Assembly (NCBI GenBank): GCA_046538485.1
Contig: JBKHIT010000033.1
Coordinates: 1 to 51,539, forward strand
Length of the DNA stretch: 51,539 nucleotides
Direction: 5' to 3'
Source of the DNA: Candidatus Brocadiia bacterium
GTDB lineage: Bacteria; Planctomycetota; Brocadiia; SM23-32
Made by a program: the position numbers. Each line of letters opens with the position of its first letter. Position 1 is the first letter of the stretch. Below, piece by piece: positions 4,601 through 10,600 of the stretch.

Positions 4601-7600
4601 AACTCTTTTTGCAGGAACTCGGCGAACGCCCGGATGCCGCCGGCCCCGAGTCGGTTGGAAGTTTCAGCGCCATTGTTGCCTTTCTCCCGGCAATACAGAC
4701 AATGCATATTGCATGCCCGGGTAATGGAGACGCGCAAAGTGCTGATCGAGGGAACGGATTTGCTCATAAAAGAAAAGCCAGAAAGTTGAGTCAAACGAGA
4801 TGCTAATCCTGCATAGTATAAGGAGACGAGGAATTCAGTTCACCCACAATTGTATCCGAACGCAGTGTACCAGGCGGTTTTCGCTTCTTCAGATTCTCCC
4901 CGGTCCGGGGCCACATTCCCAAAAGTTTTTGTGTTCCCCAAAGACTATTTATCTCGAAAACGGCTATTACTTTTTCGTAGATGTCGATCAGATTGAAACT
5001 GGCGCCGTAGGTGCTTCGCTGGTAAACGCTGCTGACGGAATTGGCGTTGGCAATGACCGTATTGCCGATTTTCGCTGCGTAGGCATGTGACGATGTTCCG
5101 GTCAGAATCAAGTCAATCCCAAAATCCACAGCTTCCCGCAGCAAATCCCCCGCGTCCTCCATCAGCCCTTTTTCTCGGGCGTGAGGGATGGGGGTTACGT
5201 TGTGATGAAAAAACAAGCCGAGAAAGTCTTCTTCCCGGGTTTCCAGGCTTTTGAAAAGCACTTTGCGCTGGGTATCCCCAATCACACCTGTGGGGGAGTC
5301 ATATTGAGATGAACACAAGCCCCGCAGCATTATATTGTCGGTTATGTACGTTTGTTCCAGTGGTCCCAGCTGCGCGGGAAACAAATCATATCCGAGATAG
5401 TTCAAATCCCGCGCGGCAGGCGTATAGACTATCGGTGGTTCCAGAAGAGGGAGATAATCCCGAGCGAGTTCATAATTTTCGCTTATTCCCTCCCGAACGA
5501 TCCCACCGCAATGCACGACAATATCGGGTTGGAGAGAATTAATTGTGTTGAGCGCGTTGTGCAGATGGTCGGCGAGAAATTTGGAGGAATTGGCAATAAA
5601 TGAATTCGACATCTGGACGATGCGTCCCAACCGCGGGCCAAAATCATAGAATGTTCTTTTTCTTCCTCGGGGGAAATTTTTTATTTTGCAGCTGCCATCG
5701 ACCCTCCTGGTTTCAACGTTCACTGTCTCCTCAGTTATTTCTATGATGTTGTAGGAGTTAAGGTCTCCGTAGCGCGTTTTCCGGCAGGAAACAGGCCCTG
5801 CATTGACAAATACGGTATCTTCAACGCGGTAGACATTGGGATAATGCCGGTGGCCCGAAAGAACGAGATCGACATCAAATCTCAGGAACATATCGAGAAG
5901 GTCGCCGGCGTTTGATAGGATATTCCGCTCGCGCCCGGCCCGGGGCGTGGGGATAGTGTGGTGATGAATGGCAACAATTTTTATGGATTTATCATGATAT
6001 TTGTGAAGAGCTTCCCGCATCATGTCGAATTTTACCTGGCCCACACGCCCATCATTGCTGTCAGCAATGGCGCTGTTAACGTAGACCACAACGGCTTCGC
6101 CGTGGACCTCCACACCGTTCACCGGGCCCACGTATTTCTCAAAAAGTGCAATTCCCCCGCTTCGAACGTCATGGTTCCCCGGGATGACAACTCTGGGAAT
6201 CTGGATGCCCTCGAGAAAATCCCGGCCCCACTCGTATTGATCGAGTTTCCCCGCCTGCGTGACATCGCCGGTGTGGAGAAGTAGATCGGACGTGCTGTCA
6301 TAAATGTCACGCTCGGCGATTTTGAGGGCTTCTTCGTTGAAATCCATTTCATCGCCGAAGTGGGTGTCCGAGATATGCAGCAGTTTCATCTCACTCCCTC
6401 GAAATAAATGTCTCCAGACTGTGCCGCTGAATATCGATAAGGTCCCGGAACGTCATGATGCCTACAATTTCCTCATTGTCAGTAACGAGGACGTGTTTAA
6501 TGTTTTTCTCAGCCATGATCCGCAGAACGTCTTTCACGGGCGTTCCGATATCAGACGTGACCAAATCGCGTGTCATGACGTCACACACCGACGTCTGGGC
6601 CCCCTTCCCTTTTGCAACAACTCGTTCTTTGATGTCCCCATCGGTGAATAATCCCACGATATCCCCGTTTTCGATGACAGCGATCGAGCTTATATTGAAC
6701 TCTACCATACGCTGTGCGGCATCCTGAACAGAGCTCTCGCATTCAACTCCGATCAGCCGTTTCGTAACGAAAGCCCTTACTGGGACGTTCATATCATAGA
6801 ATCCAAGTGATCCGTCACTCATCACTTACCTCCTTTTCAATCTGCGAAATTATATCTTCCAGTATTGTCCGCAGGGAACGCTCAAAATCCATGTTGTCGA
6901 TGATGGGCACGTCGTTTTGCTCCGCCATCCGCAATATGTAGTCCTGCTGCCGGCGAATCCTGTCGATTTGCCCCACGTATCGTTCGGCTTCCCGCTGAGC
7001 ACTCTCTTCTCGAAGATGGAAGTATAGTATGTGCTGTTGTGGATCTGGGACGTTAATAACATATTGGAAAACGTAGCGAAGTTTATCTTCCAGGATCGGG
7101 CGAAGGAATCCTGGAACGATATGCACGCCGTTAAGAATCATGTGGAGGCCCTCTTTTGCCCCCCGCCGCATGACGGCGGCTATGCCTTCGCACACGAGGC
7201 TTGTTTGTTGCTCGAAAGCATAGATGAGTTTATCAGTCACAAGTGAAGTTTTCAGCACATCGCCCGCCTTGAAGGTCGATTCGTGGAGAGTTGGTATGAG
7301 TCCGGGAGATATGATGGAGCGCATAATTTCCCGAACGGTGTCGGATCCGATCACGCGATCAATGCCAAGTCGGTGCCCCAGTTCGGAGGAAATGCTTGAT
7401 TTTCCAACACCTGGTCCCCCACCGATAACAATGAAAAGCGGTTCATCGAGATATCTGATTTGCCGTCGAACACGATAGAAGCGCTCTTCTGTGCCATGTC
7501 CACGCTGAAGAAGGTTTTCGGAGATCATTTCTTTAAGCTTTCCGGACGATACTTTTTGCACTCTCCTGGTTTGAAGTATGCCCCGAATCTCCCGCACGAT

Positions 7601-10600
7601 TTCGTAGGCTTCACTCACGGAAAGCCCGCAGCCGGTTAGAGATTTAGCCATAATCCCTTCGGAAAACGGAAATTTCCTCTTGCCCTTCTGAACTTCAATC
7701 ATGAATCACTCCCCATAGGCTGTCTGCGCTTCTGCGCACAGATTTACAATGGCATTTGTCAGGTTCTCGACAGTTCCCCCTGTGAGCACTGGCTTATTGT
7801 GAAGGAAAATGATTTGTACGTCTTCGTCCTGCGCGGCCTTCGCGGCGACATCGATGGAGGCGGCTTTAATTTCGGTCAGCAGAACATCAGCATTTTCGAG
7901 TCCATCACGCAGGTCTTCACGCAGCACCGGGCGATTTGAAAGATTGGTGCTAAAACCTGTTACTGTACAGTTGTATGTGTCTTCTAAGTAGTCTTTTATG
8001 TTGTCAGCAACCTTTTCCGGAGCGGTCGTCGCAACGAAAACTTTTCTGTCTGCCAAATCCCCCAAGGGTTCAGGACGGAAAACCGTCAATGCTACGTCGC
8101 ATTGTGGATTGATCCGTTGGATTCCCTCGGCGATTTTATCGACTTTGGCCGAACCGGCCATCGGAGGTTCGCACATAGTAACTACGGCGAGCTGGGAAAT
8201 CAAAATCCTGTATCGTCCCAGGAAATCGAGGATGTTTTCGAGGGGCTGACCGGCTCCTACAGTCACCAGTTTTCGGTCGGTGTGAACGGGGGCGAATGTA
8301 GCCCCGGAGCCCTCCATAATGACAAATTGCGCGGGCAATTCGTTGGCGATCTCGGCCCCTTCTATGACGTTCGAGAGAAAGGGGTTACCTCCCATTCCTC
8401 CCCCGCAACGCCGACACCCGATGGTTGGCACCTGACCGAGCAACGCATCTTCCCAGTAATCGGAGGCCGCATGGCCGCCCTGTTCCGCTACCTCAAGCAG
8501 AACCTCCGCAGTCAATTCCATTTCGCTTGCATCGACGACATCCGGATCCGGCGGGCCACCGCGGCCCATGCACACGGCGAGGGGCTGAAAACCTTTTCGA
8601 TTCAGAAGGCGTGCCACAGTGACCCCGACTGCGGTCTTGCCCACACGTTTGCCCGTCCCAATGATTCCCAGGCTCGGTTTCTTCAGAATGGTACGCATTG
8701 AAGGTGGTGTAAATATAAAGTCAGCACCCATATACGACACATTATGTGCGAGGATATGCGAAGCCAGTTCAAAACGTGTTCGGTAGTCGAGAACCGGTTC
8801 ATCGGATAGATCAATGACCAGTTCGGGCTTGGCCTCCTTAAGGACACGCCGGATAACCTGCAGGGTTTCTTCCTTTTGTTTGCCGCCCACATAGACATTC
8901 CACAATGTGGAATCGCCCCCCAGTTCTTCAACCGCATTCTCCACTTTTTCCGTTCCGCCAATGAACACAAGAGCGACGATGTTGGCCCCCTCCTTTTGGA
9001 GTTCATCAACAGTCCATTTTGTCACAGGTGGATAGTGCTCACCGTCCACCAGGCAGACGGCTTTTTTGTCAGCCAGCGTTTGGCGGAAGGCAATCGGCAG
9101 TGTTTTCGCCAGAGGAGAAGAGTTTTTTGCCATTGACGACGATCTCCAGGAATAAAAAAGCAAGATTGAAACATGATTGAGCGAGCCGGGAGAATTCCCC
9201 GATGAAATAGTGATTGTAGCGGGAGTTGGGTGACCTTGCCAGTGCGGGGAGCTTTTGCCTCGGCCAAAGAGCCTTAAATAGGCCCTGAAGCAATAAAGTG
9301 GTCTGGAGATGCCGGTTTGGCCGCGGATGCTGAGTAAGAGCACTTTATTTTTGTCACACAATCTTTGGATTGCTGGCGTGTCTCCATCTGTGGTATGAGC
9401 GCCAGGGAGAATTGTATGAATGTTGCTTTAATTTGCTTTATCGCGCTCGCGCGCGCGCAAAACTCAAAAAAGCCAAGAGAGGCATCCTTCTGACAGTGCC
9501 AGGCCCCCGGTTATGCTTTGAACAATTGCTTTTTACCTTGATTTCCCCCTCTTCCTCGTTCTATTTTGATGTCGTGTTTCACGTGAAACACTCGAAACAC
9601 TTCAAAAGGAGTTAGGAATGGTGAAAAAACGACGGTTAGGAAAAGGATTGGCCTCATTGATCGGTGATGCCGATACTAAAAAGGATTCAGGGTCCCCGCC
9701 AAATTCCTCGGCAACGGCAGCAAGCGGACACTCAGGGACTCTGCAAATCGAGCTGTCTGCTATTGAACTAAATCCCGAGCAGCCCCGGAAAGAACTCGAC
9801 GAAGAAGCGCTGGAAGGGCTTTCTGAATCTATTAAAAGCGCCGGAGTTCTCCAACCGATCGTCGTTCGCCCGAAAGGTGACCTCTATGAACTTGTTATGG
9901 GAGAGCGCCGGCTGAAAGCGGCTCATAAGGCCGGGCTCGAAACGATTCCCGCTCTGGTCCGTGATATCAGTGATGATCGAATGCTTGAACTGGCTCTAAT
10001 TGAAAACGTCCAGCGTGAGGATCTCAACCCAATTGAAAAGGCGGAAGCCATCGACCGCATGATTGATAATCTGGATTTAACCCAGGAACAGGCGGCGCAG
10101 AAACTGGGGTTGAAACGTTCCACGGTTGCGAATTTTCTCCGATTGCTGGATTTGCCGACCAAAATCCAGCAGATGGTTTCACGTGAAACACTGTCTGCGG
10201 GACATGCCCGGGCGGTTCTGTCGCTGGGTGAACCTGTTTTGCAGAAGAAGCTGGCGAAAAAAATCGTAGACGAAGGGCTTTCCGTAAGAAAAGCAGAACG
10301 TCTGGCCTCACAGGGCCTTAGCTCCTCACGACCATCCCGTCCGGAGCCTTCGCCGCAGGTGAAGCGGCTTCAACGGGAACTGCGCGACGCGTTGAACACG
10401 AAGGTGGAGGTTAAACACCGGGGCAAAAAAGGCAAAATAGTGGTACACTTTGCCAATAACGACGAATTTCAGCGTTTGTATGACCTTATGAGAGGAAATA
10501 GGCGCCAAAAGGGAGATCGGGAGCAATCCGCGGCCTGAAATTTGTGGGCAGCAGAGGGCGAAAACAACCTCTGCTTTTTTTGGTCCAGACGAAACTCCTC

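Follow-up and report, generated by a model that had tools for sequence, protein, structure and literature searches.

The window analysed here, a stretch of 51,539 nucleotides of contig JBKHIT010000033.1, carries a four-gene cassette (Table 1) that, judged by its sequence, is most likely responsible for making and regulating cyclic 2,3-diphosphoglycerate (cDPG) in a planctomycete of the class Brocadiia. Its products are a homologue of cDPG synthetase (cDPGS), a kinase resembling 2-phosphoglycerate kinase (2PGK), a CBS-pair protein and a metallophosphoesterase (MPE). The initial annotation had proposed an operon, g02283-g02282-g02281-g02280, at 4803..9133, and four minus-strand reading frames are indeed found there. 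We consider it rather probable that this operon-like unit combines cDPG synthesis with controlled turnover, that the CBS protein and MPE form a regulated hydrolase, that cDPG serves as K+ counter-ion and osmolyte, and that the cassette has been transferred between Archaea and Bacteria. To our knowledge, cDPG has so far been measured only in methanogens, and no bacterial cDPG pathway is described in the literature searched. The earlier restriction of this solute to (hyper)thermophilic methanogens is, however, too narrow, as the mesophile Methanobrevibacter smithii is listed as a cDPG accumulator (PMC1224877) and a cDPGS homologue is present in 140 of the 151 Methanobacteriales genomes sampled.

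Table 1. Coordinates of the cassette, its domains and its flanks in the window.
Feature	Position	Strand	Basis or remark
Four-gene cassette	4803-9133	minus	Tightly packed, head to tail
cDPGS (cyclic 2,3-diphosphoglycerate synthetase, orthologue), 475 aa	7706-9133	minus	PDB matches and mapped residues
2-phosphoglycerate-kinase-like P-loop kinase, 295 aa	6815-7702	minus	NCBIfam NF003259, linkage
Stand-alone CBS-pair protein, 144 aa	6391-6825	minus	Pfam CBS
Metallophosphoesterase (MPE), tandem, 528 aa	4803-6389	minus	Pfam Metallophos, alignment, AF2 model
MPE N-terminal domain, residues 1-250	5640-6389	minus	Canonical dimetal motifs
MPE C-terminal domain, residues 254-496	4902-5630	minus	Same fold, metal motifs lost, highly conserved
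C-terminal tail of MPE (residues 497-528) with the stop codon	4803-4901	minus	No conservation; disordered in the AF2 model
Intergenic region between cDPGS and divergent parB-like gene	9134-9617		Presumed to hold the cassette's promoter and leader
MoaA	3817-4794	minus	Pfam and NCBIfam; 8 nt after MPE; flanking gene
MobB	3350-3814	minus	Pfam and NCBIfam; flanking gene

Within the cassette, 3 nt separate cDPGS from the kinase, the kinase and CBS genes overlap by 11 nt, and 1 nt lies between CBS and MPE. The cDPGS start was placed at the ATG at 9133, with GGAG 8 nt upstream, and the alignment of the cDPGS of Brocadiia relatives begins at residue 1; the CBS protein starts with GTG, an ATG lying 3 nt inside. 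Since neither MoaA nor MobB had a match in any of 48 related genome loci, both were left outside the conserved cassette. The intergenic region holds one promoter-like site (9242-9213, minus strand), which is at chance level (9 found against 5.2 expected), and had no match in Rfam; the predicted leader fold did not stand out either (z -0.69).

The assignment of the first gene is carried by solved structures. The protein matched PDB 8ORK/8ORU with an E value of 7.6e-137, residues 23-466 aligning with 5-449 of the 8ORK chain, in agreement with the full-length cDPGS and the value of 8e-137 given initially, and PDB 9SXB with 2.1e-103; identity to the Methanobacteriales homologues is 47-50%. The structure paper on the Methanothermus fervidus enzyme (PMC10690619) assigns the 2,3-DPG, Mg2+ and ATP contacts, with E45 reaching 2,3-DPG from the other subunit. 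In the planctomycete protein the Walker A motif reads GTGKRVGKT and includes K166 and T167 (M. fervidus K149 and T150), the Mg2+ ligand is D225 (D208), the 2,3-DPG contacts are K162/R163 and E62/K63 (K145/R146 and E45/K46), and the ATP contacts are E322, T370, E421 and K423 (E305, T353, E404 and K406); the conservation initially reported for the Walker A motif and the two residue pairs is thereby borne out. All 11 mappable ligand and catalytic residues are retained, and the same 11 are complete in 60 of 63 homologues, the further ATP contact P335 being unmappable because position 335 of the 8ORK chain is not a proline by alignment count (prolines stand at 332 and 337). E45 and R146 are changed in two deep planctomycete homologues, L053 and L054, which shows that the test of 2,3-DPG contacts can fail. 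A search of Pfam and NCBIfam profiles, the Pfam set without PF27272, returned no family for the protein; PF27272 is the precomputed label on all 120 homologues among the matches listed. The name cDPGS is already in use at NCBI for a protein 98% identical to this one and for many further proteins from bacterial MAGs. From these data we infer that the protein is a cDPG synthetase orthologue.

For the kinase, the best family is NCBIfam NF003259 (2-phosphoglycerate kinase), matched over the full length (residues 2-292 of 295 on model positions 6-296 of 306; E 1e-82). The 278 bits obtained lie below the cut-off of 343, so the protein is termed 2PGK-like and its function is assigned from linkage. 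The next NCBIfam model scored 231.8 bits and mevalonate-3-phosphate 5-kinase 77 bits, whereas the Pfam matches (AAA_17, AAA_18 and AAA_28 at residues 91-177, and an ATP-cone with E 3.9e-4) are all below cut-offs; the translation shows GGGPGVGKS. Relatives of the 2PGK family phosphorylate other substrates. The gene adjoins cDPGS in 41 of the 48 genome loci, and family and linkage together suggest that the enzyme phosphorylates 2-phosphoglycerate to 2,3-DPG. In place of the 40% full-length identity to archaeal 2PGK first described, comparison with five archaeal genomes gave 34-36% (Methanobacteriales) or 54% (Methanohalarchaeum). That both enzymes of the cDPG route are present, as previously claimed, is supported at the sequence level, and production of cDPG would be expected.

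The N-terminal domain of MPE belongs to Pfam Metallophos (PF00149, E 1.8e-18 over residues 1-184) and carries the dimetal motifs D8-x-H10, G41-D42, G71-N72-H73-D74, H142-144 and G179-H180-R-H182, of which D8, H10, D42, N72, H73, H142-144, H180 and H182 do not vary across 22 sequences. In the C-terminal domain SNSF stands for DxH, HCGG for GD, PAARD for GNHD and GTSSH for GHxH, and a Pfam search of residues 254-528 gave no match; the canonical motifs of this domain are preserved in L045/L046, homologues of the Asgard type. The AF2 model (pLDDT 85.7, pTM 0.85) shows a repeated strand/helix pattern, and the tail, with pLDDT below 50, has a counterpart in none of 21 homologues. The second domain is therefore treated as degenerate, and as non-catalytic or re-purposed, its fold being retained in the model. 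No membrane segment is evident in MPE. In the CBS protein, Pfam CBS (PF00571, E 2.6e-23) matches two stretches and no other domain was found; its C-terminal tail T-x-I-S-R-E/D is invariant in an alignment of 20 sequences.

A complex model of the CBS protein with MPE reached a score of 0.68 (runs 0.67-0.69), against 0.00 for the best of three controls. This score expresses the confidence of a model computed with our own alignments; among solved complexes 116 of 157 score at least as high, and among mismatched pairs 2 of 215. The agreement of contacts is at least 63%, and partner pLDDT is at least 77. Where the CBS protein is present, the MPE segments in contact with it (243-248 and 476-492) are conserved; in CBS-less Asgard-type homologues they differ. 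The model speaks for binding between the CBS protein and MPE and, together with linkage and co-occurrence, points to the pair as a candidate regulated cDPG/2,3-DPG hydrolase.

The same four genes in the same order occur in 31 of the 48 related genome loci (15 with a bacterial and 16 with an archaeal label), and five more, cut by a contig end, are consistent as far as they reach. Far from being a rarity of this planctomycete, as the initial annotation implied, the cassette is common to many bacterial and archaeal lineages, and the finding is less isolated than it first appeared. Within the class, cDPGS, kinase and MPE each occur in the same 3 of 132 genomes (G000, G113 and G114), which reproduces the original tally for each protein separately, and the gene order described for G113 and G114 was seen in their longer records (L016 and L007). 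A new point is that the tandem MPE co-occurs with cDPGS. In a search starting from MPE, the tandem form was found in 24 of 79 metagenome loci, of which 15 carry cDPGS and kinase, eight are cut by a contig end beside CBS or kinase, and one (L092) has kinase-CBS-MPE without cDPGS within 6 kb. The tandem MPE was present in 14 of 201 Thermoplasmata-class genomes, including every one of the 12 that have cDPGS. This shared distribution agrees with the earlier proposal that the linked phosphoesterase is a candidate cDPG/2,3-DPG hydrolase. The wider MPE family, on the other hand, is not tied to cDPG, since single-domain relatives occur without cDPGS in 23 Thermoplasmata-class genomes and in nine Methanobacteriales genomes cDPGS occurs without any MPE match.

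In the mechanism proposed, the kinase would convert 2-phosphoglycerate from glycolysis into 2,3-DPG, as family and linkage suggest, and cDPGS would drive closure of the pyrophosphate ring with ATP, as the retention of every mapped residue of the solved active site suggests. The tandem MPE, its dimetal site intact in one domain and the other domain degenerate, would then act with the CBS protein to reopen the ring or to dephosphorylate 2,3-DPG; linkage, co-occurrence and the complex model are the three grounds for this step. If the hydrolase is transcribed together with the genes for synthesis, a futile cycle would result unless it is tightly regulated, and the cDPG pool may follow whatever signal the CBS subunit senses, be it an adenylate, ionic strength or another ligand. 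Trianionic cDPG would most likely act here as K+ counter-ion and osmolyte, not as heat protectant. The M. fervidus pathway (2PGK and cDPGS; 8ORK/8ORU) employs the same two enzyme families, and the Walker A, Mg2+, 2,3-DPG and mapped ATP contacts of its cDPGS are kept here, although M. fervidus is a hyperthermophilic methanogen and the present host a bacterium from saline mats and lakes. In Methanobacteriales, cDPGS, kinase and a single-domain MPE lie far apart, whereas here the cDPGS and kinase genes share a single cassette with those for a CBS protein and a tandem MPE.

Methanothermobacter thermautotrophicus has cDPG hydrolase activities described as soluble in 1992 and as membrane-bound and inhibited by K+ and Pi in 1994, and the pertinent passages of the review name no gene for them (PMC1224877). 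The reaction is the one proposed for CBS-MPE, and regulation by ions or Pi would suit a CBS subunit; the link is one that we infer, and a membrane-bound hydrolase counts against this role for the soluble-looking MPE.

The osmolyte role has its background in the habitat. DNA of this organism turns up in metagenomes of microbial mats and salt lakes. A second study, labelled salt lake metagenome, provided contigs 95-99% alike that span all 30 bins between 3300 and 9700 and run across the gene junctions, MoaA/MPE included. Relatives include records named Saliniplasma, Natronoplasma and Methanohalarchaeum and the cultured Natronorubrum and Halalkalicoccus. Two TrkH genes for K+ uptake are present in the genome, which has no match to BCCT or PF00982, and rough proteome statistics gave little information on salt strategy. 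Alternatively, though this appears unlikely, cDPG (or 2,3-DPG) could be a reserve of phosphate, carbon or energy, which CBS-MPE would mobilise when energy or phosphate is low. CBS pairs commonly bind adenine nucleotides, which would suit such a store, as would the kinase-CBS-MPE locus without cDPGS nearby (L092). Further support comes from M. thermautotrophicus, in which the cDPG level barely changed up to 0.4 M NaCl and turnover was fast, arguing against a simple osmolyte role, from its K+- and Pi-inhibited hydrolase, and from the reversible, ATP-yielding cDPGS of M. fervidus (PMC1224877). The enrichment of carriers in saline-setting records speaks against such a reserve, and no element of a phosphate regulon was noticed, although no search was aimed at one; the two roles are mutually compatible.

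We regard as improbable that CBS-MPE does not act on cDPG but is a cyclic-nucleotide or other phosphodiesterase (for cAMP or c-di-AMP, for example), signalling to the biosynthetic genes or co-inherited with them. Among NCBIfam models, MPE scores highest with CpdA, a 3',5'-cAMP phosphodiesterase (71.6 bits, short of the cut-off of 225), the best PDB sequence match is the glycerophosphodiesterase GpdQ (E 2e-7), and the fold matches are generic, comprising GpdQ, the cyclic-nucleotide phosphodiesterase Rv0805 and purple acid phosphatases; the single-domain relatives in genomes without cDPGS also fit. No experimentally tested member of this MPE family was found. The class III phosphodiesterases GpdQ (2DXL/3D03) and Rv0805 (3IB7/2HY1) resemble the N-terminal domain, with its dimetal motifs intact, but at 18-19% identity and as single-domain homo-oligomers, whereas MPE has a fused second copy without metal motifs and a predicted CBS partner. 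Against this reading, the tandem MPE is almost never met away from cDPGS and kinase, and CBS-less and single-domain MPEs stand directly beside cDPGS-kinase (L045-47, L109, L138-141, L150 and L163), as expected of a pathway enzyme.

A different substrate for the cDPGS homologue, making the cassette product another phosphorylated compound, is very improbable. The thought arises from ArcE (TK2200), the arginine synthetase of Thermococcus kodakarensis, a distant cDPGS homologue widespread in bacteria including Planctomycetota, whose family was long unannotated or mislabelled and catalyses a quite different reaction (PMC11032458); the many bacterial genomes with CpgS_N may largely represent this family. 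In the tree, moreover, cassette cDPGS form their own clade (support 99), separate from the Methanobacteriales clade with the tested enzyme type. However, the similarity of ArcE to cDPGS is called 'low' (PMC11032458), the identity to Methanobacteriales and all mapped 2,3-DPG contacts point to cDPG, and a search of the planctomycete's own genome gave no second, weaker homologue. By similarity levels and gene context, the protein is outside the ArcE family. Among 401 Planctomycetota genomes sampled, seven of the 400 other than this one have a cDPGS match, with a 2PGK-like gene adjacent in six, the seventh locus being too short to show this neighbour. A second planctomycete layout, counted in these seven genomes and including L053 and L054, combines a long 2PGK with two ATP-cones, cDPGS and an ApgM-type phosphoglycerate mutase; the pathway enzymes and phylum are the same, but the gene order is opposite, a mutase replaces CBS-MPE, identities are 35-48%, and the branches are deep and separate.

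Bacteria and Archaea are interleaved in the cDPGS tree, a single bacterial clade is rejected (p-AU 0.0005), and the best reading is a mobile module that moved between the two domains. That the contig is instead a binning contaminant or chimera from an archaeon, as the bin contamination of 4% and the nearest cDPGS by identity (Thermoplasmatota, 63%) might suggest, is scarcely credible, as the ArgRS on the same contig falls from 69% identity to G114 to 46-50% across the class, following kinship, and so places the contig in the lineage, bacterial housekeeping genes accompany it, G113 and G114 carry the cassette with cDPGS that group with this one (support 87), and the contigs of the independent study bridge the MoaA/MPE and internal gene junctions.

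Returning to the cassette as a unit of cDPG synthesis and regulated turnover, a broader view may tentatively be put forward, namely that cDPG is a widespread anionic solute of anaerobes living in saline mats and sediments, that the self-contained module of four genes producing it has passed several times between Archaea and Bacteria, and that the CBS-switched tandem MPE, an active and a pseudo-enzyme domain in one, is the cDPG hydrolase, its breakdown and the synthesis jointly keeping the cDPG/K+ pool at a set point. If this were true, cDPG would not be a speciality of hot methanogens, and CBS-MPE would supply the hydrolase gene.

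The four genes that the initial annotation had grouped as one operon are real, and they are arranged as four open reading frames (ORFs) head to tail on the minus strand of the contig, at 4803-9133. They encode a homologue of cyclic 2,3-diphosphoglycerate (cDPG) synthetase, hereafter cDPGS, a kinase, a CBS-pair protein and a tandem metallophosphoesterase (MPE). The cDPGS and kinase genes are separated by 3 nt, the kinase and CBS genes overlap by 11 nt, and a single nucleotide lies between CBS and MPE, while MoaA and MobB begin on the same strand 8 nt past MPE. A consensus scan found no terminators between the cassette genes; such scans performed at chance level, both for promoters (9 against 5.2 expected) and for terminators (12 against 8.2 expected). 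A riboswitch was not found, since Rfam gave zero matches over 3000-10000 at E values up to 1 and the leader at 9134-9420 folded no better than shuffled sequences (z -0.69). No parA was noticed adjoining the ParB gene.

Features of the cassette and its upstream flank
Feature	Position	Strand	Remarks
cDPGS	start ATG 9133	minus	475 aa; GGAG 8 nt upstream
Kinase	7702-6815	minus	295 aa
CBS	6825-6391	minus	144 aa
MPE	6389-4803	minus	528 aa
ParB	9618-10538	plus	complete (N-terminal, HTH and dimerisation domains); divergent from the cassette, upstream of cDPGS
ORF	10674-12134		486 aa; unannotated, no Pfam family
Two very large ORFs	14040-22819	plus	1335 and 1426 aa; recognised domains only CBM9 and one NHL repeat

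The active site of the synthetase homologue is conserved. The window cDPGS matches the crystallised enzyme of Methanothermus fervidus over nearly its whole length (E 7.6e-137), and PDB 9SXB, a third deposited 'cyclic 2,3-diphosphoglycerate synthetase' (436 aa), with E 2.1e-103; a search of the library covered found no publication on the latter. According to passages of the paper on the M. fervidus structure, 2,3-DPG is contacted by K145 and R146 together with E45 and K46 of the partner subunit, K149 and T150 belong to the P-loop, D208 is a Mg2+ ligand, and the ATP contacts include E305, T353, E404 and K406 (PMC10690619). All 11 mapped ligand or catalytic residues are kept in the window protein (E62, K63, K162, R163, K166, T167, D225, E322, T370, E421 and K423), and 60 of 63 cDPGS homologues retain the full set, which does not include P335, a position not placeable on the printed alignment. 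Scans with local copies of Pfam and NCBIfam assigned no family to the window cDPGS. For the kinase, the best match was the NCBIfam 2-phosphoglycerate kinase model NF003259 (E 1e-82, full length); as its 278 bits fall under the cut-off of 343, the protein is named 2PGK-like. It shares 54% identity with its Methanohalarchaeum homologue; of the four Methanobacteriales genomes compared, three have homologues at 34-36% and one gave only a partial match of 31%. No relative was found in PDB.

Contamination or chimerism of the contig is unlikely. The same contig also encodes ArgRS, PRPP synthetase, DNA polymerase III delta', RsgA, Ack-Pta and lipoate genes, and ArgRS identity declines with kinship, from 69% in G114, a relative that carries the cassette, through 54-66% in the family and 50% in the order to 46-50% in the class. 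The DNA is of saline provenance: contigs from another study, which carry the label salt lake metagenome and are 95-99% alike, cover 30 of 30 bins of 3300-9700 and span the MoaA/MPE, MPE/CBS/kinase and kinase/cDPGS junctions. The public runs listed as carrying this DNA include no RNA data set. It is therefore this kinship gradient, together with the junction-bridging contigs, that speaks against a foreign or chimeric origin. ArgRS served as lineage marker because the ORFs starting at 14040 and 18539, considered as RpoB and RpoC, were rejected on their matches to CBM9 and NHL; these large ORFs may encode secreted or surface proteins.

Within the class, the cDPGS gene had been counted in three of 132 genomes (this one and two relatives, G113 and G114), and the same three carry cDPGS, kinase and MPE. 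A wider scan of species genomes gave 48 loci, whose gene content was read by tblastn. The order cDPGS-kinase-CBS-MPE was found in 31 (15 with bacterial and 16 with archaeal titles); four more break off directly past CBS and one ends inside the kinase. The remainder comprises four loci with cDPGS-kinase-MPE and no CBS match, three of them Asgard records, one with CBS-MPE divergent from cDPGS, one with only cDPGS-kinase (Methanohalarchaeum) and six with cDPGS alone. The bacterial titles name Brocadiia or Brocadiaceae, Aminicenantes, 'Eubacteriales', Mcinerneyibacterium, Bradymonadales and unnamed bacteria, and the archaeal ones Thermoplasmata and allies, Saliniplasma, Natronoplasma, Hadarchaeota and Methanomassiliicoccales.

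A phylogeny built with a quick IQ-TREE run from 56 sequences of cDPGS is unrooted and does not give the direction of transfer; it leaves out duplicates (L002 and L003, of loci L007 and L016), hits with a length under 80% of that of the query and, among the 12 Methanobacteriales rows, 7. In the cassette clade (support 99), 20 rows are bacterial and 19 archaeal, and the two domains are intermixed; the window cDPGS stands beside two other Brocadiia rows (support 87), and Methanobacteriales, Desulfurococcales and Asgard form separate clades. Constraining the 20 bacterial cassette rows, a group chosen after the tree was seen, to join cost 87.7 log-likelihood units (p-AU 0.0005). Judged by its sequences, the cassette is widespread and mobile, and appears to have been transferred between domains.

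Other families of Planctomycetota carry a second layout. Among 401 genomes sampled, seven further ones (G158, G189, G213, G237, G257, G275 and G315; loci L052-L059) have a cDPGS homologue of 35-48% identity. In six of them, as far as the short loci reach, a long kinase of about 400 aa with two ATP-cones lies upstream of cDPGS, and in five, where the loci reach, an ApgM-type cofactor-independent phosphoglycerate mutase lies downstream. This kinase-cDPGS-ApgM layout gives independent support for a route from glycolytic phosphoglycerate. At two of the loci, L053 and L054, the 2,3-DPG contacts E45 and R146 are replaced (by G or R, and by L).

Pfam detects only the first half of the MPE. Across 22 aligned tandem homologues, the N-domain keeps every dimetal motif, and the C-domain is equally conserved with SNSF, HCGG, PAARD and GTSSH in place of DxH, GD, GNHD and GHxH. 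The AlphaFold model (pLDDT 85.7, pTM 0.85) presents one strand/helix pattern twice; GpdQ and Rv0805 are the closest solved folds, at 18-19% identity, and Foldseek returned generic metallophosphoesterase folds only, without a tandem match. Asgard-type homologues lacking CBS have canonical motifs in both halves and two Pfam stretches. At L045-L047 and L109, Asgard-labelled and related contigs, such a tandem MPE with canonical metal motifs in both domains follows cDPGS and kinase without CBS, a layout that may reflect the original form of the tandem enzyme. A domain tree of 67 rows, taken from 179 and not including the MPE of the window itself, places all C-domains, Asgard included, in a single clade (support 98); this suggests that the duplication came before the metal motifs were lost.

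The linkage was also read in reverse: the MPE alignment was run against metagenome contigs, and 79 loci were kept. A tandem MPE was found in 24, of which 15 also have cDPGS and kinase and 8 are cut by a contig end next to kinase or CBS. The sole exception is on a 263-kb contig (L092:4678-7491), where kinase, CBS and tandem MPE stand together and cDPGS is absent for 6 kb to either side. Among the 55 single-domain relatives, six (L138-L141, L150 and L163; about 250 aa) immediately precede a cDPGS-kinase pair, a third architecture tying the MPE family to the pathway. The class to which one Thermoplasmata carrier belongs was sampled with 201 genomes: 12 encode cDPGS, each of them together with the tandem MPE; in two others the tandem MPE occurs with no cDPGS match, and 23 have just a single-domain relative, cDPGS being absent. 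Of 151 Methanobacteriales genomes (G515-G664; loci such as L067-L072), 140 have cDPGS and 137 encode a single-domain relative of the MPE N-domain (about 250 aa, 33-41% identity) that does not adjoin cDPGS; nine have cDPGS without an MPE match and six the reverse. The cDPG hydrolase of methanogens might be this relative, although 23 Thermoplasmata-class genomes have such a protein and no cDPGS. On these three sets of counts, it is the tandem MPE, and not the broader family of single-domain relatives, that is tightly tied to the predicted cDPG pathway.

The CBS protein consists of a CBS pair and no other domain, and its C-terminal tail is invariant across the aligned sequences. Its modelled complex with MPE scored 0.68 (three runs, 0.67-0.69), and the best of three controls 0.00; this mark is attained by 116 of 157 solved complexes and, for mismatched pairs, by 2 of 215, counts that are only approximate here because the alignments were built in this analysis. 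Contacts agreed to at least 63%, with a partner pLDDT of at least 77. The MPE contact segments, the interdomain linker 243-248 and 476-492, are conserved in cassettes with CBS and divergent in the Asgard-type proteins. The model supports a putative binding of the CBS protein to MPE.

Overall, these results support the reading of the cassette in the initial annotation, as a putative cDPG pathway with a linked candidate hydrolase. In the proposed scheme, 2-PG would be phosphorylated to 2,3-DPG and then cyclised to cDPG, and the CBS-MPE complex would reopen the ring or dephosphorylate 2,3-DPG under the control of a ligand sensed by CBS; such control would avoid a futile cycle even with genes of synthesis and breakdown on one transcript. 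The cDPG trianion may act as a K+ counter-ion. Two TrkH genes are present in the genome, which at 88% completeness gives no BCCT or PF00982 matches. A search for ectoine synthase gave no match, with control genomes equally silent, and proteome acidity from crude ORFs of at least 200 aa (D+E over K+R 1.09, median pI 6.1) is too rough for a call on salt strategy. According to passages of a review, in M. thermautotrophicus the synthetase is activated by K+ and the hydrolase inhibited by K+ and Pi, which fits such a set-point device; the cDPG pool there barely tracks NaCl and turns over fast, so that cDPG may instead be a storage compound (PMC1224877).

Passages of two recent enzyme papers state that cDPG and its synthetase are exclusive to hyperthermophilic methanogens (PMC10690619; PMC12136491). 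The protein databases present a wider picture: among at least 8000 scored candidates for the window cDPGS, a 98%-identical protein is already named 'cyclic 2,3-diphosphoglycerate synthetase [Planctomycetes bacterium]' at NCBI, and among the matches listed the name is also on proteins of Aminicenantes, Latescibacteria, Marinimicrobia, Cloacimonetes and cultured Natronorubrum. Cultured haloarchaea, among them Natronorubrum tibetense GA33, N. thiooxidans and Halalkalicoccus salilacus, encode close homologues, 53-54% identical to the window protein, and that of H. salilacus is named '2,3-diphosphoglycerate synthetase'. As for CpgS_N, counted in more than 2000 bacterial species, much of this number may stem from ArcE, a distantly homologous family of arginine synthetases that is widespread in bacteria, as described in passages of PMC11032458. 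Among the literature matches listed, drawn from outside subscription journals, no paper was found on a bacterial cDPG pathway or on the CBS-MPE genes, and none on cDPG with hypersaline settings, Planctomycetes or Thermoplasmata. The claim of novelty thus holds for the cassette and its CBS-MPE module, but not for bacterial cDPGS, which public annotation already contained. What is new is a conserved cassette, apparently transferred between domains, with an undescribed module of CBS plus pseudo-tandem MPE, and tied to saline, not hot, habitats.

A cDPG breakdown activity was described in the 1990s, no gene being named for it in the review passages that cite it (PMC1224877), and CBS with the tandem MPE represents a concrete candidate gene pair for this function. 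If the cassette works as read, the ecology of cDPG would be far wider, extending to saline, anoxic and mesophilic settings in both domains. Since cDPG is sought after as a stabiliser of protein and DNA, there would be practical use for mesophilic enzymes and for a hydrolase that can be controlled. If true, the cassette would furthermore be an instance of an entire osmolyte or storage module transferred between domains.
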